In this document: positions 6,181 through 42,330 of the stretch, piece by piece
Numbering within the stretch: position 1 is the stretch's first letter
How the letters are laid out: every line of letters begins with the position of its first letter
DNA from: an uncultured Ruminococcus sp.
Lineage (GTDB): Bacteria > Bacillota > Clostridia > Oscillospirales > Acutalibacteraceae
DNA: 42,492 bases
Reading direction: 5' to 3'
Assembly (NCBI GenBank): GCA_964385735.1
Contig: CAYLQF010000001.1
Location: 1 to 42,492, forward strand
Program-made: the position numbers and the translations under genes
Notes under the pieces: generated by a model
Told to the model about the DNA's origin: nothing
Database searches by the model: none
Seen by the model: the letters and a program-made list of their open reading frames with translations, nothing else

Positions 6181-7905
6181 ATGATGGATCCCGAAAGAAT
6201 TTGCCCCTCGTGTATGGGTGATAATGCGGGGGAACGCATTTGTCCGCTTTGCGGATTTGACGGCGACAATAAAAACCCGCCCGAGGCACTTGCCGTAAAA
6301 ACGGTGCTTTTAAACAGATTTTTTGTGGGAAAGGCCGTTTCGAGGGACAGCGAGGGCGTAACCTACATAGGGTATGACGGGCAAACCGAAAGCAGAGTGG
6401 ATATAAAGGAATATTATCCGGCTGCGGTCGCAATAAGAAATTCGAACGGCTCGGTTTCCTGCGTACAGGAGTCTAAATTTTCTTATAATGAGGGACTTAT
6501 GGAGTTCCTTGAAATAAATCGCACCTTAAGTGAGGAAAAGCTTGCGGCAACCGCTTCGGTGGTTGCGGTTTTCGAGGAAAACGGTACTGCCTATGCCGTA
6601 ACCGAAAGGGTGAGCGGCATAACCCTTGCCCAGTTTCTCGAAAAGAACGGAAATACGCTTAAATGGGAACAGGCAAGGCCGCTTTTTCTGCCTCTTGTCG
6701 ATACCCTTATAGCGCTACAGCAGAAAAGAATATATGTGCTTGGAATAGCTCCGCAAACGGTTATTGTCGGCAGAGATGCACGGCTTAGATTATCTTCAAT
6801 ATGTGTCAGAAGCAGCAGAAGCGTTGCAAATGATGTAAAGCCGAGCCTTTTTGACGGTTATTCCGCTCTTGAGCAATACGGCTACGAGGGCCTTAACATA
6901 GGAGCCTATACCGATGTTTACGGTCTTTCGGCAACTCTTTTCAGAACTCTTATAGGAATGGTTCCGCCTACGGCTACCGAAAGGGTCGAGAACGACGGTA
7001 TGACTATTCCGGCACGCTTTGCGGATGAGCTTCCGAGGCAGGTGCTTGTTGCTCTTGCAAACGGCTTGCAGGTTATGCCCGAAGGCAGAACCGCCTCGGT
7101 GGAAATCTTTAAAAACGAGCTTGTATACGGGGAGGCGCAGGAAAATGCAAGAAAAGCCGCACTTGCGAGAAAGGCGGCAAGGCAGGCGGAGCTTGAAAAG
7201 GAGGTAAGCTCGGATAGCAGAAGAGAGGAAACTCTCAGAAAGCAGGCTGAAAAGCAGGAGAAAAAGGAACGCCCGACCTCTCCGGCAAAATATGCCGTTA
7301 TTTCGGCTGCCTGTACGGCAGGCTTCTTCCTTGTTATAGCGCTGATACTCTGTCTTACTGTATTCAGAGCTGCCATATTTAAGACTTCAACAACCACAAG
7401 CGAGAGCGAGCCGAACAAAATGCCGAGCGTTGCTTCCATAGGCGATGTCGATGCGGATGCCGATAAGGCCTTGACAAAGCTTTATCATGTTCCGAGCTTT
7501 GTCGGGAAATATTATTCGCAGATATCGACAGATGACGAATATGAAAATCTTGAATTTGTCATAACGGGGAAGCAGTATTCCGATAAGGTTGCAAGGGGTG
7601 CGATAGTCTCGCAGTCCGTTGCGGCGGAATCCGATGTTGTAAAGGGAACAACGGTTGAGCTTGTTATAAGCCTCGGTCCGAAGGAAATTAAAATAGCCAA
7701 TGTAGTCGGTCAGACTAAGGAGGAGGCAGTCCTCGAGCTTTTAAAGCAGGGCTTTATATACGAAAACATAACGATTGAGGAAAAATACGATTCAACAAAA
7801 AAATCCGGTGTTGTTCTTTCCCAAACTCCGAAATACGGTGCTTCGGTTAATACCGAAATAGCAATTACCGTATATATTAACTCATATACGGAGAGCTCGG
7901 AATAA
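6181..7905 (+). CDS. Zinc-ribbon / Hanks-kinase-like (probable pseudokinase) / TM / 2x PASTA membrane protein
   Basis: GGAGG (6171-6175) lies 5 nt before the ATG at 6181; the track start at 6151 is a TTG without an SD. It has a CPSC...CPLC zinc ribbon. The kinase-like fold keeps VDIKE and SALEQ/TDVYGLSATLFRTLIG but lacks HRD and DFG. One TM helix is present (YAVISAACTAGFFLVIALILCLTVF). Two C-terminal PASTA repeats span nt 7480-7884. Confidence 0.75.
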   Translation: MMDPERICPSCMGDNAGERICPLCGFDGDNKNPPEALAVKTVLLNRFFVGKAVSRDSEGVTYIGYDGQTESRVDIKEYYPAAVAIRNSNGSVSCVQESKFSYNEGLMEFLEINRTLSEEKLAATASVVAVFEENGTAYAVTERVSGITLAQFLEKNGNTLKWEQARPLFLPLVDTLIALQQKRIYVLGIAPQTVIVGRDARLRLSSICVRSSRSVANDVKPSLFDGYSALEQYGYEGLNIGAYTDVYGLSATLFRTLIGMVPPTATERVENDGMTIPARFADELPRQVLVALANGLQVMPEGRTASVEIFKNELVYGEAQENARKAALARKAARQAELEKEVSSDSRREETLRKQAEKQEKKERPTSPAKYAVISAACTAGFFLVIALILCLTVFRAAIFKTSTTTSESEPNKMPSVASIGDVDADADKALTKLYHVPSFVGKYYSQISTDDEYENLEFVITGKQYSDKVARGAIVSQSVAAESDVVKGTTVELVISLGPKEIKIANVVGQTKEEAVLELLKQGFIYENITIEEKYDSTKKSGVVLSQTPKYGASVNTEIAITVYINSYTESSE

Positions 7906-34171: not shown

Positions 34172-36535
34172 ATGAAAAAACGCCTTTTAAAAACGATATC
34201 TGTTTTATTGGTGGGTGTCTTTATGCTTTCGGGCTGTGGGGAAAATAAAGAAAAAAAGAAAAATGTAAATTCGGTGCAGTCAGGGGAAGCAACTGCGGTA
34301 AATCCTCTTGACGGGATAAGCTTTTATGCTTTAAGCGCCGGAGAGGTGCAGGCCGAGGGCTGGCTTAGAAATCAGCTTGTGCTGCTTGCGGAAAATATGG
34401 CAGCTGATTTTGAAAGCATTTCGCCTACTGTGAAAGCAACCGGTGATGACCGCTCCGGCTGGCTCGGAGGTACGGGCGAAAGCTGGGAGCGCAGTGCGTA
34501 TTATGTGAGGGGTCTTGTTTCCTTAGGCTATACCTTAAACGATGAAAAGCTGAAAAAGCAGGCGCAGAAATGGTTGGATTGGACGCTCGAAAGTCAAAGT
34601 GAGTCCGGTCTGTTCGGGCCCTATGCGAATAACGAGGAGCAGTTTGACGACTGGGCTGTTATGCCTATGCTTTTGGCTTTAGAGGAATATTACGATGCCT
34701 CGGGTGATGAGCGGGTTATACCTTTTCTTCAAAAATATTTTAAGTATCAGTCGGAAAATATAGGCAGCATTATAGAGACGGGCTCGTGGGCTTATTGGAG
34801 AGCTTGCGATAATATATATGCCGTATGGTGGCTTTGGAACAAAACGGGTGACGATTCTCTCAAGGATTTATGTATAAGGCTTGAAGCCAAGGGCTATAAA
34901 TGGAGCACCGCCTACCGTGAAAATATTTTCGATAAGGAAAATAACTACCATATAGTAAATATACATCAAGCCCTCAAGCTGTATCCGACTATGTATGCCC
35001 TAACCGGCAAGGAGGGGTATCTTACATCTTATTACGAGGGACTTGAAAGCCTGTATATATCCTCCGTTCGGCAGGACGGTATGTCCAACGGCGATGAATA
35101 TCTAAGAGGCAATTCCGCAACCTACGGAACCGAGACCTGCGCTGTGGCGGAGCGTATTCTTTCGGATAAAATTTCACTTCTCTTTACCAAAGACCCTACA
35201 GTTGCGGACAGCCTTGAAAATGTTGCGTATAACTGTCTGCCTCAGCAATTGCTGTCCGACGGTAAGGGATATGCGTATTTTACAATGCAAAATCAGATAG
35301 ATGCTTCACTTGGCAGCAAGGGCTTTCTCACCGAATACGGAACCGGCTTATGCTACGGTACTCCGAGCGGATGTCCCTGCTGTGCGCATAATTATCTTAT
35401 GGCTTGGCCGGAATTTGTTCAGAGTATGTGGATGAAAACCAGCGATAACGGGCTTGCGGTAGGCTCCTACGGCCCGAACACCGTAACCGCCGACCTCGGA
35501 GATAAGGGCAGGCTTACGGTTAAAGAGGAAACGAATTATCCCTATGAGGAGACCGTTAAGCTTACAATCACTCCCGAAAAGGACGGCACCGAATGTCCGC
35601 TGTATCTCAGAATTCCCGAGTGGTGCGAGGGAGCTTCACTTAAAATAAACGGCAAGACGGAGGATACGGTGCTTCGTGCAGGAGAGTATGTAAAGCTTCT
35701 GCGAGGCTGGAAAAGCGGCGATACTGTAGAGCTTGTATTTCCTATGAGCTTTAAGGCTACCTTTACCGAAAACAACAGTGTGAGCATAAAATACGGAGCG
35801 GTTTTGTTTGCGGTAAAAATAGACGAAAGCAAGCAAAAAACAACCTATACGAATAATTATAATAAGGATTATGATTATCTCGGCGGCAAGTATTTGAATT
35901 ATAACATTACCGCCGTCTCCGATTGGAATTTTGCTCTAAAGGACTTTAATTTTAATGATGTTGCTTCTAATTTTACCGTTTCGAAAAAATCGATAACCGA
36001 TAATATGAGCTATGAGCAGTCCGAAGCGCCTATTGTGCTTACGGCAAAGGGTATTAAGGTAACAACATGGTGCGCAAATTCCAAAAATGTTGCCGAAAAG
36101 CCTCCGGTTTCTCCGGTTACAGGTGAAAATCTCGGAGAAAGCTCGGATATAACCCTTATACCTTATGCCTTTTCAAGGCTTCGTATCACTATGATACCGT
36201 GGACGGGGTCGAGCGCTGTCGAATACACGGCCGACAAAAGCTACAGCGATGAGAGTAGCATAAGTCTAAGCGGAATTATAGTACCGGACAGCTCGGATTA
36301 TGACGGTAGGATAACCTTCTTTATTTCCTATCAGTCGAGCAGCGACCTTTATTTGCGCCTTTATATAAACAAATCGGAAAATTCTCAGATTTTGAATTTT
36401 AAAAAGGGCGAAAATACGATTGAAATATCATATCCTTATGAAAGCTGCTTTGAAAAAAACAATCTTCTTAAATTTGAAACGGTTGACGGCTCGGCGCTCC
36501 CTGAGGATTTTACCGTATCCGTTATGGTAGGATGA
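34172..36535 (+). CDS. GH127/GH146-like (DUF1680) putative beta-L-arabinofuranosidase, lipoprotein
   Basis: Lipobox MLSGC/GE. Cys/Glu-containing motifs GTETCAVAE and GCPCCAHNY resemble the Zn-Cys catalytic centre motifs (E-x-C ... C-C) of GH127 as I recall them. 787 aa. Confidence 0.55.
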   Translation: MKKRLLKTISVLLVGVFMLSGCGENKEKKKNVNSVQSGEATAVNPLDGISFYALSAGEVQAEGWLRNQLVLLAENMAADFESISPTVKATGDDRSGWLGGTGESWERSAYYVRGLVSLGYTLNDEKLKKQAQKWLDWTLESQSESGLFGPYANNEEQFDDWAVMPMLLALEEYYDASGDERVIPFLQKYFKYQSENIGSIIETGSWAYWRACDNIYAVWWLWNKTGDDSLKDLCIRLEAKGYKWSTAYRENIFDKENNYHIVNIHQALKLYPTMYALTGKEGYLTSYYEGLESLYISSVRQDGMSNGDEYLRGNSATYGTETCAVAERILSDKISLLFTKDPTVADSLENVAYNCLPQQLLSDGKGYAYFTMQNQIDASLGSKGFLTEYGTGLCYGTPSGCPCCAHNYLMAWPEFVQSMWMKTSDNGLAVGSYGPNTVTADLGDKGRLTVKEETNYPYEETVKLTITPEKDGTECPLYLRIPEWCEGASLKINGKTEDTVLRAGEYVKLLRGWKSGDTVELVFPMSFKATFTENNSVSIKYGAVLFAVKIDESKQKTTYTNNYNKDYDYLGGKYLNYNITAVSDWNFALKDFNFNDVASNFTVSKKSITDNMSYEQSEAPIVLTAKGIKVTTWCANSKNVAEKPPVSPVTGENLGESSDITLIPYAFSRLRITMIPWTGSSAVEYTADKSYSDESSISLSGIIVPDSSDYDGRITFFISYQSSSDLYLRLYINKSENSQILNFKKGENTIEISYPYESCFEKNNLLKFETVDGSALPEDFTVSVMVG

Positions 36536-36537
36536 GT

Positions 36538-36584
36538 AAAACGAAAATCCGATTATCAAATGTGATGATCGGATTTTCGTTTTT
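36538..36584 (+). terminator. Rho-independent terminator after the glycosidase-like gene
   Basis: AAAACGAAAATCCGAT (36538-36553) / ATCGGATTTTCGTTTT (36568-36583): a 16-bp perfect stem running into a T tract. Confidence 0.85.
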
Positions 36585-36631
36585 GTGCACAAGCTGAAAT
36601 TACGATTTCGATAATTATTCTGCTGTGCTTT

Positions 36632-36672
36632 TTCAAATTTTTCAATCATTTTTCAATATTCTGTGCTATAAT
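36632..36672 (+). promoter_or_regulatory. Promoter with phased direct repeats (putative response-regulator box) upstream of the RR gene
   Basis: TTCAAATTT (36632-36640), TTCAATCAT (36641-36649), tt, TTCAATATT (36652-36660), 6 nt, then extended -10 TGcTATAAT (36664-36672). Confidence 0.55.
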
Positions 36673-36765
36673 GGTTGTTGAAAATTGAAATGAATATAGA
36701 AAATACCTTTAAGAGCTTCGACATTTTATAATCATTATAATAGGACATAATCGGGAGGTGTCGGT

Positions 36766-37449
36766 ATGCGACTTTTACTTGTCGAGGATGAAAAAAGAAT
36801 GGCACAGGCATTGTGTGAAATCTTGCGCCTTGAAAAATATGAGGTTGACCATTACACAAACGGTCTTGACGGCTTGTCCGCAATCGAAAGCAATGTTTAC
36901 GATATTGTAATTCTTGATGTTATGCTTCCGAAAATGAATGGGTATGAGATTGCAAAAATAGCCCGCAGCAAAGGCGTTACAGCTCCGATTTTAATGCTTA
37001 CCGCCAAGGCAGAGCTTGACGATAAAGTAATGGGGCTTGACAGCGGTGCAGATGATTACTTGACAAAGCCGTTTATGACTAAGGAATTACTTGCTAGGCT
37101 TCGTGCGCTCAGCAGGCGAAGGCTCGGCACAACCGACGGGATATTATCCTTTGCGGATATTACCCTTGATATAAGCACGCTGATTTTATCCTGCACAAGC
37201 AACGGTCAAAGTGTTAGACTCAGTGAAAAGGAATACCGTATTCTTGAATATTTAATGTCTAACAGTGGTCATATTTTAACCCGTGAACAGCTTGCGTTAA
37301 AAATTTGGGGATTTGAAAGCGAAGCCGAGTACAATAATGTGGAAGTATATATGTCGTTTACCCGTAAAAAGCTTGCGTTTGTCGAAGCAAGGACCGAAAT
37401 TAAAGCCGTGCGTGGAATCGGATATGAATTAAGGTGCGACAATGTTTAA
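36766..37449 (+). CDS. OmpR/PhoB-family response regulator
   Basis: Receiver domain (MRLLLVEDE..., DIVILDVMLP, LTAK) plus a winged-helix C-terminus (VEVYMSFTRKKL...VRGIGYEL). GGGAGG SD. Confidence 0.9.
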   Translation: MRLLLVEDEKRMAQALCEILRLEKYEVDHYTNGLDGLSAIESNVYDIVILDVMLPKMNGYEIAKIARSKGVTAPILMLTAKAELDDKVMGLDSGADDYLTKPFMTKELLARLRALSRRRLGTTDGILSFADITLDISTLILSCTSNGQSVRLSEKEYRILEYLMSNSGHILTREQLALKIWGFESEAEYNNVEVYMSFTRKKLAFVEARTEIKAVRGIGYELRCDNV

Positions 37450-38692
37450 GAAATCAAGACGAAAAATCGTTACGGCAATTATGTCCATACTTGTGGCTTT
37501 ATGGGTGGGAACACTCGGTGTTATCTATGTATCCAGCTATTTCGAAATGACAGGACAAAACGAACAAATGCTTCAAACACACGCCGAGCTGTATGTGCTT
37601 CCTCAAGCATTTGAGGAAACGCTTCCGCCAGAAAAGCCTGTTCCGGACAGTAATAAAAATACCACTCCCGACTTTGAAGAACAGTCGCCGAGGTTTCGGC
37701 TGTCCACTTTTTATACCGTTGCAATGTCGTATGACGGAGAAATTCTTGAGATAAAGAACGAACAGCCGACTATACATACCGATGCTGAGCTGGAAAATAT
37801 GGCGCAAAGCATTATTAAGAGCAATAAGAGTGCCGGCAGCAGCGACAATCTTGCTTTCTGTAAAACGGATAAGGGCGGATATCTCCTTGTTACCTTTATG
37901 GATAATACCGTTATCAATGAAAGCGCTATGACTTTATTTCGGTACACACTTATTTTCGGTTGTGTGGCAATGGTGCTGTTTTTCTTTCTGTCGGTATTTC
38001 TTGCGAGGAAAATCGTACATCCGCTTGAGGAAAGCTATCAAAAGCAGAAGCAATTTATATCCGATGCCGGTCATGAGCTGAAAACACCGGTATCGGTGGT
38101 TAGTGCCAATGCCGAGCTTTTGTCCCGTGAGCTCGGTGATAATCAATGGCTTCAAAACATTCAATACGAAAACGAACGGATGGGCATACTTGTAGGGCAG
38201 CTTCTTGAGCTTGCCCGAACTGAAAAGCTTACGCCGCAGACAGAGCATATTGATTTCAGCCGGCTTGTTGCCGGAGAAACGCTTCCGTTTGAAAGTGTGG
38301 CCTTTGAAAAGGGAATGGTTTTGAACAGCGATATTACTAAGGGCATTGCTGTAGAAGGCAACAGCACACAGCTTAAACAAATTGTAGCTATACTTCTTGA
38401 TAATGCTATTCGTCACAGCAAGAAGCCTGGTGAAGTGTATTTATCCTTAACAAGGGAAAGCAATCTTGCCAAGCTTTCCGTTATCAATAACGGCGATGAA
38501 ATCTCTACGGAACAGCGTGAGCGGATATTTGAACGCTTTTATCGACTTGATACTGCCCGTAGCGAAGAGGATAAGCATTACGGTCTGGGCCTTGCCATAG
38601 CCAAAGCAATAGTAGCTTCGCACAAGGGTCGAATCGAAGTGCTTTGCTATAACGGACTTGTGGAATTCAGAGTGCAAATTCCGGAAAGCTGA
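37442..38692 (+). CDS. Sensor histidine kinase (two TM helices, extracytoplasmic sensor, HisKA + HATPase_c)
   Basis: H-box SDAGHELKTP, N-box LLDNAIRHS, G-box GLGLAIAK. TM1 is at about aa 9-31 and TM2 at about aa 165-187. It overlaps the RR gene by 8 nt. Confidence 0.9.
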   Translation: MFKKSRRKIVTAIMSILVALWVGTLGVIYVSSYFEMTGQNEQMLQTHAELYVLPQAFEETLPPEKPVPDSNKNTTPDFEEQSPRFRLSTFYTVAMSYDGEILEIKNEQPTIHTDAELENMAQSIIKSNKSAGSSDNLAFCKTDKGGYLLVTFMDNTVINESAMTLFRYTLIFGCVAMVLFFFLSVFLARKIVHPLEESYQKQKQFISDAGHELKTPVSVVSANAELLSRELGDNQWLQNIQYENERMGILVGQLLELARTEKLTPQTEHIDFSRLVAGETLPFESVAFEKGMVLNSDITKGIAVEGNSTQLKQIVAILLDNAIRHSKKPGEVYLSLTRESNLAKLSVINNGDEISTEQRERIFERFYRLDTARSEEDKHYGLGLAIAKAIVASHKGRIEVLCYNGLVEFRVQIPES

Positions 38693-38705
38693 AAAATTTA
38701 ACAAT

Positions 38706-38738
38706 TTCAATATTACTTCAATATTCCTCCTGTACAAT
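38706..38738 (+). promoter_or_regulatory. Putative RR-dependent promoter of the VTC-DUF4956-CotH operon
   Basis: TTCAATATT (38706-38714), ac, TTCAATATT (38717-38725), 7 nt, TACAAT (38733-38738). There is no good -35. The architecture matches the box upstream of the RR gene. Confidence 0.5.
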
Positions 38739-38768
38739 GATATCATTAAAGTACAGGAGGATTTTTAT
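38726..38768 (+). terminator. Terminator-like hairpin after the histidine kinase gene (overlaps the putative downstream promoter)
   Basis: CCTCCTGTAC (38726-38735) / GTACAGGAGG (38751-38760), a 15-nt loop containing the palindrome AATGATATCATT, followed by ATTTTTAT. Confidence 0.5.
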
Positions 38769-38798
38769 GCGAAGGCTGAATGAGAAGGGAGTGAAGAG

Positions 38799-39470
38799 AT
38801 GAAATACCGACACGAGTGGAAGCATGAGATAAGCTACGGTGATATGCTCGTTCTCCGGCAGCGTTTATCTGCTGTTATGAAGTGTGATGCTCACGCTGTT
38901 GACGGCAAGTATTTGATCCGAAGTTTGTATTTCGATAACGCATACGATAAGGCACTGAGAGAAAAGCTTGACGGTGTGAATATTCGTGAAAAATTCCGAA
39001 TTCGATATTATAACGGTGATACATCCTTGATTCATCTGGAGAAGAAAAGCAAGGTGAACGGCTTATGCCTGAAGGACAGCACGGTGCTGACCGAAGAACA
39101 GGCACAGTCGATTGTAAAGGGTGACTATACTTGGATGGTAGACAGTGGTGCTCCGTTGATTCAGGAGCTGTACAGTAAAATGCTGAGTCAGGGACTGAGA
39201 CCTAAAGTCATCGTAGATTATTTAAGAGAGCCTTTTGTGTTCGCACCGGGCAATGTAAGGGTTACTATTGACTATAATATTCGCACGGGAATGAATTGTA
39301 CGGACTTTTTAAATTCCGACTGTGTTACGGTTACTGCGGGTGATGCTCCCATAATCCTTGAAGTGAAATGGGATGAATATCTGCCGGATATTATCCGTGA
39401 TGTTGTACAGCTCCCTAATTGCCGAGTGGGTGCTTTTTCAAAATATGCCGTATGCAGAATATACGGCTGA
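38799..39470 (+). CDS. VTC-domain (polyphosphate-polymerase-like, triphosphate-tunnel fold) protein
   Basis: 223 aa with no TM helix. It shows the alternating charged beta-strand motifs typical of CYTH/VTC tunnels: YRHEWKHEI, EKFRIRYY, IHLEKKSK, IILEVKWDE. Confidence 0.7.
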   Translation: MKYRHEWKHEISYGDMLVLRQRLSAVMKCDAHAVDGKYLIRSLYFDNAYDKALREKLDGVNIREKFRIRYYNGDTSLIHLEKKSKVNGLCLKDSTVLTEEQAQSIVKGDYTWMVDSGAPLIQELYSKMLSQGLRPKVIVDYLREPFVFAPGNVRVTIDYNIRTGMNCTDFLNSDCVTVTAGDAPIILEVKWDEYLPDIIRDVVQLPNCRVGAFSKYAVCRIYG

Positions 39471-39499: not shown

Positions 39500-40171
39500 A
39501 TGACCTTCAATGACATTTTCAAATCAAGCTTTTTGGAAAATATTACAAGCGTGAGCATTCTCGATATGGCGCTTGCTTTAGTCCTCGCCTTTGGCGTAGG
39601 GATGTTTATTTTTCTTGTATATAAAAAGACCTATCAGGGTGTAATGTATTCTTCGAGCTTCGGAACAACACTTGTTGCCCTTACGATGATCACCACCGTT
39701 GTTATCCTTGCGGTAACCTCCAATGTGGTTCTTTCTCTCGGTATGGTAGGCGCACTTTCTATTGTTCGTTTTCGTACCGCCATTAAGGAGCCTCTTGATA
39801 TTGCTTTTCTTTTCTGGTCAATTGCGGTAGGCATCGTATTGGCGGCGGGTATGATTCCTCTTGCCGTAATCGGCAGCGTTATCATCGGAGTAATCCTTCT
39901 TGTATTCGTGAACAGAAAGTCTTACTGCAACCCGTATATTCTTGTTCTTTCCTGTGCCGATGCCACGGCAGAAAAGAAAGCAGTTGATTTTCTAAAAGGA
40001 AATGTTCAAAAATGTGTTGTTAAGAGCAAAACAGCAGCTAAGGGCTTAATTGAACTTAATCTTGAAATTCGTATGGCGAATGACAGCACCGATTTCATCA
40101 ATGCTCTCAGCGCCATGTCCGGTGTAAACAGCGCAGTTCTTGTAAGCTATAACGGCGAGTATATGGGCTAA
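39500..40171 (+). CDS. DUF4956-family membrane protein
   Basis: 223 aa with four predicted TM helices, the conserved-looking basic motif LGMVGALSIVRFRTAIKEPLD, and a soluble C-terminal domain of about 85 aa. AAGGAG SD. Confidence 0.65.
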   Translation: MTFNDIFKSSFLENITSVSILDMALALVLAFGVGMFIFLVYKKTYQGVMYSSSFGTTLVALTMITTVVILAVTSNVVLSLGMVGALSIVRFRTAIKEPLDIAFLFWSIAVGIVLAAGMIPLAVIGSVIIGVILLVFVNRKSYCNPYILVLSCADATAEKKAVDFLKGNVQKCVVKSKTAAKGLIELNLEIRMANDSTDFINALSAMSGVNSAVLVSYNGEYMG

Positions 40172-40182
40172 GGAGGTACGCT

Positions 40183-42330
40183 ATGTCAACACATAAGCAT
40201 TTTGATAAAATTTGCTGTGTTGTTCTTGCCGTCACGCTGCTTCTTACTGTATTGTTTATGAATGCCGAAAAATTCGGCGTGCAAAAGACCTCCACGGTAA
40301 TGGGATATGAAAACAAGCTGTTTGACATCTCTACTGTCCATACGATAGATATTATTATGGATGATTGGGATACCTTTACGGCAAATTGTAAAAGTGAAGA
40401 ATACTACCCCTGCTCGGTTGTGATTGATAATGAAGCTTATAAAAATGTTGCAATACGAGGTAAGGGTAATACTTCGCTGACTCAGGTTGAAGCCTATGGA
40501 AATGACCGTTACAGCTTCAAGCTTGAGTTTGACCATTACGACAGCACCAAAACCTACTACGGGCTAGATAAATTGTGTCTGAACAATATCATTCAGGACA
40601 ACACCTATATGAAGGATTATCTGACCTATCAGATGATGAATGAAATGGGTGTGGCTTCTCCTCTTTGCAGTTATGTTTATATTACCGTTAACGGTGAGGC
40701 TTGGGGACTTTATCTTGCGGTAGAGGGCGTTGAGGAAGCTTTTCTGCAACGCAATTACGGAAATAATTACGGTGAGCTTTATAAGCCTGACAGTCAGAGC
40801 ATGGGCGGCGGCCGAGGAAACGGTGAAAAATTCGATATGGATGAATTTTTAGGCGGTTCCGACTCCGAGAGCGCAGACAATATTCAAAGCAGTGATATCG
40901 ATAACGGTAATCAAATGCCGAGCGGAAATATGCAGGGCGGAACAATCCCTCCGGAGCTACCAAGCGGAGGAATACCCCAGAGCAATAATGCACAAGGCGG
41001 TATGAGACCTTTCGGCAATTCGGCAATCACAGACGGTTCATCAACCGATACCGACAGTCGGGCGCAGCAAGGCGGTATTGCTTCGGAAATCGGAGGACAA
41101 ATGCCTGAGGGCAGTATGCGTGACGAAGCTAAAGGCGGAATGACAAACGGCAGCGATGATGTATTGCTGAAATATATTGATGATGAGCTTGAAAGCTATG
41201 TAAATATCTTCGACAATGCTAAAACCGATGCCTCTGACAGTGATAAAAAGCGATTGATTGCAGCTCTTAAAAGCTTGAACAGCGGCGAAGACCTGAAGAA
41301 CACCGTTGATATTGAGAAGGTGATTCGTTATTTCGTTGTGCATAATTTCGTTTTGAACTTCGACAGCTATACCGGTTCGATGATTCACAACTATTATCTT
41401 TACGAAAAAGACGGACAAATGCAGATGATTCCGTGGGACTATAACCTTGCCTTCGGCGGCTTTCAATCTATGAGAGATGCTACAAGTCTTGTGAACTATC
41501 CGATAGATTCTCCTGTATCCGGCGGTAATGTCGAGGACAGACCGATGCTTGCATGGATATTTGAAAATGAGGAATACACAGAACTTTATCATCAATATTT
41601 TGCGGAATTCATAACTGAGTATTTTGACAGCGGTTATTTCTCGGAGATGATAGATGACATAAACGCAATGATTTCTCCTTATGTTGAAAATGATCCCACC
41701 AAGTTCTGCACCTATGAAGAATTTGAAACGGGTATTGCAACACTTAAAGAGTTCTGCTTACTTCGTGCCGAAAGTATAAGCGGTCAGCTTAACGGTACCA
41801 TCGGATCAACCTCCGACACACAGACAAGCGATACTCTTATTGATGCGGGCGATCTGCAAATCGACGATATGGGCTCTATGAACAACACGATGAGCGACGG
41901 TATGCAGTTCGGCGGAAATATCCAAATTCCGAATGCGGACGCAGCCTCTAACGGTGAACAGCTTTCCGGTATAGGTAAAAGCAACGAAGCTATAGAGCCT
42001 GCCGCAAGCACACCTGATAGCTCCAAAAGCGATGGGGCAACAGGCAGACTGATGACACAAATGCCTAACGGTAATCAGGGTGGCTTTAACGGAGGGCAGC
42101 TGCAAGGCGAAGCACCGCCCGATTTTGCCGAAGGCGAAAACGGACAGCAGGGTGATTTCGGCGGTCAAATGCAACCGCCTGACGGAAACGCTCAAATTGA
42201 CAATAATAAACAAATGCAGCAGCAAGGGGAAAGCACTGTAGATATTTTCTCATGGCTTGCGGTCGGTATAAGCACGGCAATTCTTGTATTGGGACTTGTG
42301 TTTGCGTTCAGATTCAAAAGGCGAAAATAA
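40183..42330 (+). CDS. CotH-family atypical kinase, membrane-anchored at both termini
   Basis: CotH-like motifs YSFKLEFD, GELYKPD, HNYYLYEKDGQMQMIPWDYNLAFG. N-terminal TM at aa 10-26 and C-terminal TM at aa 688-709 followed by RFKRRK. AAGGAGG SD. Confidence 0.75.
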   Translation: MSTHKHFDKICCVVLAVTLLLTVLFMNAEKFGVQKTSTVMGYENKLFDISTVHTIDIIMDDWDTFTANCKSEEYYPCSVVIDNEAYKNVAIRGKGNTSLTQVEAYGNDRYSFKLEFDHYDSTKTYYGLDKLCLNNIIQDNTYMKDYLTYQMMNEMGVASPLCSYVYITVNGEAWGLYLAVEGVEEAFLQRNYGNNYGELYKPDSQSMGGGRGNGEKFDMDEFLGGSDSESADNIQSSDIDNGNQMPSGNMQGGTIPPELPSGGIPQSNNAQGGMRPFGNSAITDGSSTDTDSRAQQGGIASEIGGQMPEGSMRDEAKGGMTNGSDDVLLKYIDDELESYVNIFDNAKTDASDSDKKRLIAALKSLNSGEDLKNTVDIEKVIRYFVVHNFVLNFDSYTGSMIHNYYLYEKDGQMQMIPWDYNLAFGGFQSMRDATSLVNYPIDSPVSGGNVEDRPMLAWIFENEEYTELYHQYFAEFITEYFDSGYFSEMIDDINAMISPYVENDPTKFCTYEEFETGIATLKEFCLLRAESISGQLNGTIGSTSDTQTSDTLIDAGDLQIDDMGSMNNTMSDGMQFGGNIQIPNADAASNGEQLSGIGKSNEAIEPAASTPDSSKSDGATGRLMTQMPNGNQGGFNGGQLQGEAPPDFAEGENGQQGDFGGQMQPPDGNAQIDNNKQMQQQGESTVDIFSWLAVGISTAILVLGLVFAFRFKRRK

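Follow-up and report, generated by a model that had tools for sequence, protein, structure and literature searches.

The pho box of Escherichia coli consists of 7-base-pair (bp) direct repeats with an 11-bp period, which replace the -35 element about 10 bp upstream of the -10 element. PhoB activates its own operon, and its signal is phosphate limitation. In Streptococcus pneumoniae, CiaR binds TTTAAG-N5-TTTAAG at a position 10 nucleotides (nt) before the -10 element, a search rule used by Marx et al. 2010, citing Halfmann 2007 (PMC3091779). The same paper gives the operator as NTTAAG-N5-TTTAAG with an essential final G and the recognition helix as VVEVYVSKVRKKL, and VVEVYVSK(V/I)RKKL is nearly invariant in streptococcal CiaR (PMC3091779). 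In Bacillus anthracis, a phased hexamer repeat served to predict the regulon of BAS0540-BAS0541, a CiaRH-like two-component system (TCS), and binding was shown upstream of the system's own gene (PMC4938410). Genes of the VTC, DUF4956 and CotH families have been described together as accessory genes beside Gram-positive pel operons (PMC7112168), and the set is also present in the NELoc-2 pathogenicity locus of Clostridium perfringens (PMC2879425). A literature search on the regulation of the VTC-DUF4956-CotH set found no paper. We analyzed a stretch of 42,492 nt from an uncultured Ruminococcus sp. (contig CAYLQF010000001.1, assembly GCA_964385735.1; hereafter the window), in which a TCS of a response regulator (RR) and a histidine kinase (HK) is followed by such a set, and in which a phased pair of hexamers, TTCAAT-N5-TTCAAT (the box), precedes both the RR gene and the VTC gene.

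Comparison with related loci led us to the view that the box is, with good probability, the operator of the adjacent OmpR-family RR, which would activate both RR-HK and VTC-DUF4956-CotH, the VTC promoter being nested in a terminator hairpin. The features concerned are the following.

36641-36657, + strand: RR-promoter box, TTCAAT at 36641-36646, 5 nt, TTCAAT at 36652-36657; predicted RR-binding site
36664-36672, + strand: extended -10 element of the RR promoter, TGcTATAAT, 9 nt past the box
36766-37449, + strand: gene for the OmpR-family response regulator (Pfam Response_reg and Trans_reg_C), recognition helix NVEVYMSFTRKKL
37442-38692, + strand: gene for the histidine kinase (Pfam HisKA and HATPase_c only), overlapping the RR gene by 8 nt
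38706-38722, + strand: VTC-promoter box, TTCAAT at 38706-38711, 5 nt, TTCAAT at 38717-38722; begins 14 nt past the HK stop codon
38726-38766, + strand: conserved RNA hairpin and T-run, arms CCTCCTGTAC at 38726-38735 and GTACAGGAGG at 38751-38760, T-run at 38762-38766
38733-38738, + strand: -10 element of the VTC promoter, TACAAT, without TG and without a -35 element, 10 nt past the box
38799-39470, + strand: gene for a VTC-domain protein (polyphosphate-polymerase-like), first gene of the operon (Pfam PF09359, E 7.6e-38)
39500-40171, + strand: gene for a DUF4956 membrane protein, second gene of the operon (Pfam PF16316)
40183-42330, + strand: gene for a CotH-family kinase-like protein, third gene of the operon (Pfam PF08757, E 4.2e-63)

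The box in the window and across loci

The exact TTCAAT-N5-TTCAAT core occurs twice in the 42-kb window, once before the RR gene (36641-36657) and once before the VTC gene (38706-38722), against an expectation of 0.01 copies. An earlier note on this DNA had described these sites as paired 9-mers, and all the strings that it quoted were found where it had placed them. Upstream of the RR gene the order is TTCAAATTT (36632-36640), TTCAATCAT (36641-36649), tt, TTCAATATT (36652-36660), ctgtgc and TATAAT (36667-36672); upstream of the VTC gene it is TTCAATATT (38706-38714), ac, TTCAATATT (38717-38725), cctcctg and TACAAT (38733-38738). With up to two mismatches, the paired 9-mer pattern matched twice in the window (0.11 expected; 0 of 100 shuffles reached two matches), and both matches were the sites upstream of RR and VTC. 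Neither the single 9-mer TTCAATATT with one mismatch (20 matches in the window, 23 expected) nor the core pair with two mismatches (3 found, 8 expected) was enriched, which identifies the exact phased pair as the signal.

The description of the two boxes as identical needed correction: the proximal 9-mer is the same at both sites and the distal one differs. The orthologue logo revealed the hexamer TTCAAT as the conserved unit, positions 7-9 being variable, most of all after the distal repeat. An additional copy, which the note had placed next to the RR box, is indeed present. It lies 9 bp rather than 11 bp from the next repeat, that is, out of phase with it.

36632-36640, + strand: third TTCAA-type copy, out of phase, 5' of the RR box

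An analogue of this copy at the 9-bp offset could be read in a few orthologous loci (L003, L005, L012, L017/L018), and the logo columns upstream of the RR box showed weak conservation only.

The orthologue set was obtained by scanning species-representative genomes with the VTC protein, which gave 80 loci (numbered with the prefix L) whose VTC proteins are 71-90% identical to that of the window. All but two of them (78/80) are metagenome-derived assemblies, whose titles name Acutalibacteraceae, Oscillospiraceae and Lachnospiraceae among others; the exceptions are Petralouisia muris NM01_1-7b (L051) and Hominifimenecus sp. rT4P-3 (L077). The gene order RR-HK-VTC-DUF4956-CotH is kept in about 45 of the 80 loci. 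Allowing at most one mismatch, the VTC-promoter box was recovered in 49 loci and the window (consensus TTCAATaaAACTTCAATCTTCCTcCTGTAcAATG) and the RR-promoter box in 34 loci and the window (consensus TTCAATcatttTTCAATcTTTtnTggTATAAT). The hexamer columns of the logos are near 2 bits, and conservation is poor in the DNA that precedes the box.

The repeat period is constant in all orthologues, and the spacing to the -10 element is fixed at each promoter, being box-N9-TATAAT before RR and box-N10-TAnnnT before VTC, with TAnnnT at these offsets in nearly all loci. The alignment of orthologous loci thus bore out the arrangement that had been read from the window alone, with repeats kept at a set distance from the -10 element on both sides. 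RR promoters have TATAAT in 29 of 35 cases and TG at -15/-14, making an extended -10 element, in 25 of 35. All VTC promoters fit TAnnnT (50/50) and most read TACAAT (34/50), and none has the TG (0/50). Neither site in the window has a good -35 element, as had been noted before: matches to TTGACA at a 17-nt spacer were 0/6 and 2/6. A sigma-70 promoter scan of the window gave no match using either -10 element, so that neither promoter was detected by it.

The RR leader of the window is long, with about 70 nt after the -10 element (36673-36745) that are absent from L001 and most loci; it holds two further TATAAT strings at about 36734-36749. Long RR leaders were also found in L003, L012 and L073, with a second, box-less -10 element near the RR gene (TGnTATAAT in L003). 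Such an element may be a separate constitutive promoter.

Specificity was examined on both strands of the window and the 80 loci, 868 kb in total. Exact copies of TTCAAT-N5-TTCAAT numbered 74, and 72 of these, all on the coding strand, precede an RR or VTC start by no more than 260 nt. The other two are L007:3196, upstream of RR, and L038:5110, upstream of VTC, each with a longer leader. A common occurrence of the motif, which the earlier note had named as a possible objection, was therefore not found in these 868 kb, every exact copy lying upstream of RR or VTC.

The half-site was then compared with the recognition helix of the neighbouring RR, and three classes could be distinguished. Class A comprises the window and the syntenic loci, with the helix YNNVEVYMSFTRKKL (YNNVEVYxSFxRKKL) and the TTCAAT box, the last base of the hexamers being T in nearly all loci. 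Class B comprises six loci with a divergently placed TCS (L053, L054, L061, L062, L065 and L074), in which the RR is 43-47% identical and the helix is ENHVEVYVGFLRKKL. Here TTCAGC-type repeats with an N5 spacer, followed by N9 and TAnnnT, stand before VTC in 6/6 loci; in three of these, one hexamer departs from the type as TTCAGT or TTCAGA. The class B box also precedes the system's own RR gene, on the other strand, in L054, L061, L065 and L074. Class C (L009, L058 and L067) has the helix VVWVYISYLRKKL and TTTAAG-like repeats.

Of the 120 stretches listed from a metagenome-wide scan with the class A motif, about 100 look like chance matches in unrelated A+T-rich DNA, and the scan gives no measure of genome-wide frequency. 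The matches listed included at least 12 RR genes preceded by the box; six of the encoded proteins are only 44-51% identical to the RR of the window. All 12 of the RRs so retrieved and listed carry EYN[NV][VI]EVYx[ST]FxR(K/R)KL, which is the class A helix. Since helix and half-site change together across the three classes, the adjacent RR is the expected reader of the box, and an unrelated regulator would be hard to reconcile with this pattern. The comparison supports the earlier interpretation of the box as a site for this RR.

Several further variants were seen among the loci. In two higher-G+C relatives, L049 and L066, the VTC box is TTCAAG-N5-TTCAAG, accompanied by TATGAT, and the CCTCC hairpin is missing. 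TTCAAT is retained at their RR promoter, and their helix differs by one residue (YNHVEVY). L061 holds one more class B copy, midway through a 460-nt spacer; TATGCT comes next, and no gene is evident behind it. TTTAAG-like, and hence CiaR-like, repeats were found upstream of VTC in L067, L072, L068, L063, L009 and L058.

The hairpin around the VTC -10 element

Between HK and VTC, the window contains a hairpin that is absent from the earlier note. Its layout is CCTCCTGTAC, 15 nt, GTACAGGAGG and ATTTTT, and the VTC -10 element straddles the junction of 5' arm and loop, with three bases in each. Covariation was assessed on an alignment of 45 distinct loci. Overall, 98% of the cells pair, and five of the ten pairs have changes on both sides; none of 500 shuffles reached any of these measures, and in controls slid along the alignment pairing dropped to 33-51%. 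One-sided changes gave U-G on the + strand in 13 cells and C-A or A-C in 4 cells, an excess that points to a coding-strand RNA rather than a protein operator. A T-run (at least four T within 9 nt) follows the stem in 44 of the 45 loci. The hairpin of the window folds with -20 kcal/mol (z -6.4), and RNA that begins in the loop, at the predicted VTC start near 38745, is unstructured, with -7.4 kcal/mol (z -0.7). A simple terminator scan missed the hairpin because its loop is above 8 nt.

We infer that transcription of RR-HK ends at the hairpin, an intrinsic terminator that encloses the regulated VTC promoter. The AAT of the -10 element is conserved though it lies in the loop, where a terminator sets no constraint, and this supports its role as a -10 element. 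In the syntenic class C loci L067 and L072, an ordinary terminator between HK and the box takes the place of the nested hairpin, which is consistent with a need for insulation. In the class B intergenic regions, where the TCS is divergent and no transcript comes in, no such hairpin was seen.

In several related loci the 3' arm also serves as ribosome-binding site for the gene behind it. In L070 and L077, 7-11 nt separate its GGAGG from the VTC start codon, and in L073 an in-frame ATG follows 7 nt after it. Among the matches listed from the metagenome, the loci L103, L105, L146 and L147 have it 6-10 nt upstream of the next gene's start. In the lineage of the window about 30 nt separate the GGAGG from VTC, which has its own GGGAG, and in the window itself the intervening DNA holds a short open reading frame (ORF).

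38767-38802, + strand: 11-codon ORF, MRRLNEKGVKR*, following the 3'-arm AGGAGG; stop codon overlapping the ATGA at which VTC begins

A role as leader peptide was considered for this ORF and rejected, there being no ATG at this place in 27 of 50 loci. Its stop overlaps the start of VTC because that start reads ATGA, and the ORF is probably a by-product of an insertion between an old ribosome-binding site and VTC.

Proposed mechanism and alternative explanations

In the mechanism that we infer, with its binding, activation, start sites and termination read from sequence, the phosphorylated RR would bind the two hexamers as a head-to-tail dimer, one helical turn apart, at about -39 to -23. There it would recruit RNA polymerase to promoters that have a -10 element and lack a -35 element. 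The box on the RR side would drive the regulator's own RR-HK operon, whose consensus extended -10 element (TGnTATAAT) probably gives a basal level of expression that the regulator then boosts. The box on the VTC side would drive VTC-DUF4956-CotH from a weaker -10 element (TACAAT, without TG), for which reason this operon should depend strictly on the regulator. The RR-HK transcript carries both arms of the hairpin and should terminate at the T-run, and RNA from the VTC promoter would begin in the loop, lack the 5' arm and continue past the T-run.

Some observations weigh against this mechanism or narrow it. The specificity search covered the window and the locus flanks, and the regulon may have more members or the motif a higher genome-wide frequency. 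In eight syntenic loci with readable upstream sequence the box on the RR side is absent, so autoregulation is dispensable. The autoregulation that had been proposed earlier for a shared regulon would be frequent rather than universal. The box and hairpin are kept in L008, in which the TCS is deleted except for the last HK codons, and in L019 and L070, which have unrelated genes upstream and no adjacent TCS, showing that adjacency is not obligatory. The arms of the hairpin are separated by 12-17 nt, a long loop for an intrinsic terminator; an inner helix of 3-4 bp shortens it in the window, and with about 84% pairing across loci this helix is weakly supported. Finally, locus L081 has a second box and hairpin after a VTC-DUF4956 pair that itself follows another kinase gene without a box of its own, and insulation from RR-HK read-through can hence not be the only role of the hairpin.

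Decayed TCSs were seen in L008 (5800-5900) and L047 (5517-5891), both of which keep box and hairpin before VTC. In L047 the first 91 RR codons are closely followed by a short C-terminal remnant of the kinase.

A protein sitting on the box (about -39 to -23) could also occlude RNA polymerase, and an extended -10 element such as that of most RR promoters can work without a -35 element or an activator. The box might on these grounds be a repressor site, at which the RR would block polymerase over the -35 region and the signal would turn both operons off or release them. We hold this to be improbable. PhoB-activated promoters share the spacing between box and -10 element seen here. The same spacing is that of CiaR-activated promoters (PMC3091779), and the VTC promoter, with its weaker -10 element and neither TG nor -35, would be nearly silent unaided and leave nothing to repress. 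The loci L008, L019 and L070 are what a reader encoded elsewhere in the genome would lead one to expect, the proximity of the TCS then being incidental, and such a reader has very little probability in our estimate: the box precedes the RR gene itself in 34 loci and the window, the half-site and the adjacent RR's recognition helix vary together over three classes, the RRs found through the motif alone all have the class A helix, and L008 retains a 3' remnant of its HK gene, which marks the loss of its TCS as recent. As for a chance resemblance of two boxes in A+T-rich intergenic DNA, the pattern taken by itself is not rare among the metagenomes, most of the listed stretches looking like chance. 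This explanation is refuted by the enrichment in the window (two copies where 0.01 are expected), by the fixed spacing and by the specificity within the 868 kb, position, strand and spacing being conserved in dozens of species-level genomes; we give it practically no weight.

The hairpin, too, can be read differently. An inverted repeat that overlaps a -10 element and a predicted start occupies the classical position of a repressor site, and its arms vary unusually little for a terminator, so that the repeat could be a DNA operator of a dimeric protein, or a cruciform. That it is an RNA terminator seems to us the better explanation, and the alternative unlikely, given the compensatory changes, the preference for U-G among one-sided changes and the nearly constant T-run described above, as well as the use of the 3' arm as Shine-Dalgarno sequence of the next gene in L070, L077, L103, L105, L146 and L147.

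Gene products, related modules and known systems

The regulator has the Pfam domains PF00072 (3e-27) and PF00486 (1e-20), which confirms the earlier assignment to the OmpR family. The kinase has hydrophobic segments at residues 7-34 and 161-195. The loop of about 125-135 residues between them, which had no Pfam match, agrees with the extracytoplasmic sensor of about 130 residues that had been proposed. For the TCS, NCBIfam gave no equivalog, the best hits being RppA/RppB below cut-off, and no NCBIfam model matched VTC or CotH. By hydropathy, the VTC protein has no hydrophobic segment. DUF4956 has overlapping hydrophobic segments over residues 11-141, suggesting about four membrane helices, and its C-terminal part is soluble. 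In the CotH protein, a hydrophobic segment is present near either terminus (residues 6-31 and 684-712). The kinase-like domain between the two probably faces the cell exterior, and the protein also contains long low-complexity stretches rich in Gly, Gln and Ser. As a speculation, cytoplasmic polyphosphate could be passed through DUF4956 to serve as phosphoryl donor for the extracytoplasmic CotH kinase domain. Upstream of RR lies a GH127 gene, with a terminator-like hairpin after its stop codon. An Rfam scan of 36400-38900 matched no family, its two weak hits being this GH127 terminator hairpin.

The combination of box and hairpin was also found outside the orthologue set. In L103 (7868-11149) the order is RR (75% identical), HK, box and hairpin, a VTC gene of a second subfamily, DUF4956 and a Cthe_2159-type lipoprotein gene. 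L081 has RR, HK, box and hairpin and a lipoprotein gene, and further on VTC, DUF4956, box and hairpin and a lipoprotein gene; its two modules are on the reverse strand (oriented 1777-1870 and 6782-6860), each before a lipoprotein gene. The box with its hairpin looks like a reusable module, and the regulons of this family can apparently hold more than one target promoter.

A broader reading, which we offer tentatively as one possibility, is that box, -10 element and hairpin form a portable promoter-in-terminator module of a CiaR-like TCS family in gut Clostridia, in which the ribosome-binding site on the 3' arm is masked in read-through RNA and VTC-DUF4956 with a surface protein is doubly gated. 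The 5' arm with its CCUCC (anti-Shine-Dalgarno) would be present only in read-through RNA, where it would both terminate transcription and mask the 3'-arm GGAGG. In RNA that starts in the loop the GGAGG would be free, to act either as a 5' element or, as in L070, L077, L103, L105, L146 and L147, as ribosome-binding site for the following gene. The regulator would in this way gate VTC-DUF4956 and a surface protein, be it CotH or a Cthe_2159-type lipoprotein, twice.

VTC-DUF4956-CotH sets are widespread in Firmicutes and have no assigned function, and the predicted operator, together with the dedicated kinase and a promoter that should depend strictly on the regulator, gives a handle on when they are expressed. 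It would also make the regulon predictable in any genome of these families. The three pairs of helix and half-site, with TTCAAT, TTCAGC and TTTAAG, form a small natural data set on specificity shifts in the OmpR family. Should the nested promoter-terminator be confirmed, it would offer insulation in compact form and a useful genetic part.

Among described systems, CiaRH is similar in several respects. Both have an OmpR-family regulator, two hexamers with a 5-nt spacer (11-bp period) and a 10-nt offset to the -10 element, and a kinase with two membrane segments and an extracytoplasmic loop; the helix of the window RR, NVEVYMSFTRKKL, is identical to VVEVYVSKVRKKL at 9 of 13 positions. Unlike CiaR, the window system has the half-site TTCAAT instead of TTTAAG, with T where CiaR needs its essential G. 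Its targets are VTC-DUF4956-CotH, whereas those of CiaR are htrA and the csRNAs, its host belongs to the Clostridia, and one of its target promoters is nested in a terminator hairpin. The helix and the half-site rule out the window RR as a CiaR orthologue, and the class C systems with TTTAAG-like repeats (L067, L068 and L072) are closer to CiaR than the window system is. We consider that the window system would work like CiaR without being its orthologue. BAS0540-BAS0541 differs from it in using a TTTAAG consensus and in having no VTC or CotH genes among its targets.

With PhoB, the window system shares direct repeats of 11-bp period that replace the -35 element about 10 bp from the -10 element and the predicted activation of the regulator's own operon, and its RR matches the PhoB model of NCBIfam with 1e-52, below cut-off. 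The repeat sequence differs, however, and nothing in the data ties the kinase to phosphate, although the target is polyphosphate-polymerase-like. As in the pel-associated and NELoc-2 sets, the same three protein families are encoded contiguously; unlike those sets, for which no regulator is described, the operon of the window is free-standing behind a dedicated TCS. The regulatory design is thus of a known kind, an activator box like those of CiaR and PhoB, to which this locus would add the nested promoter-terminator and a first regulatory handle on the VTC-DUF4956-CotH operon.

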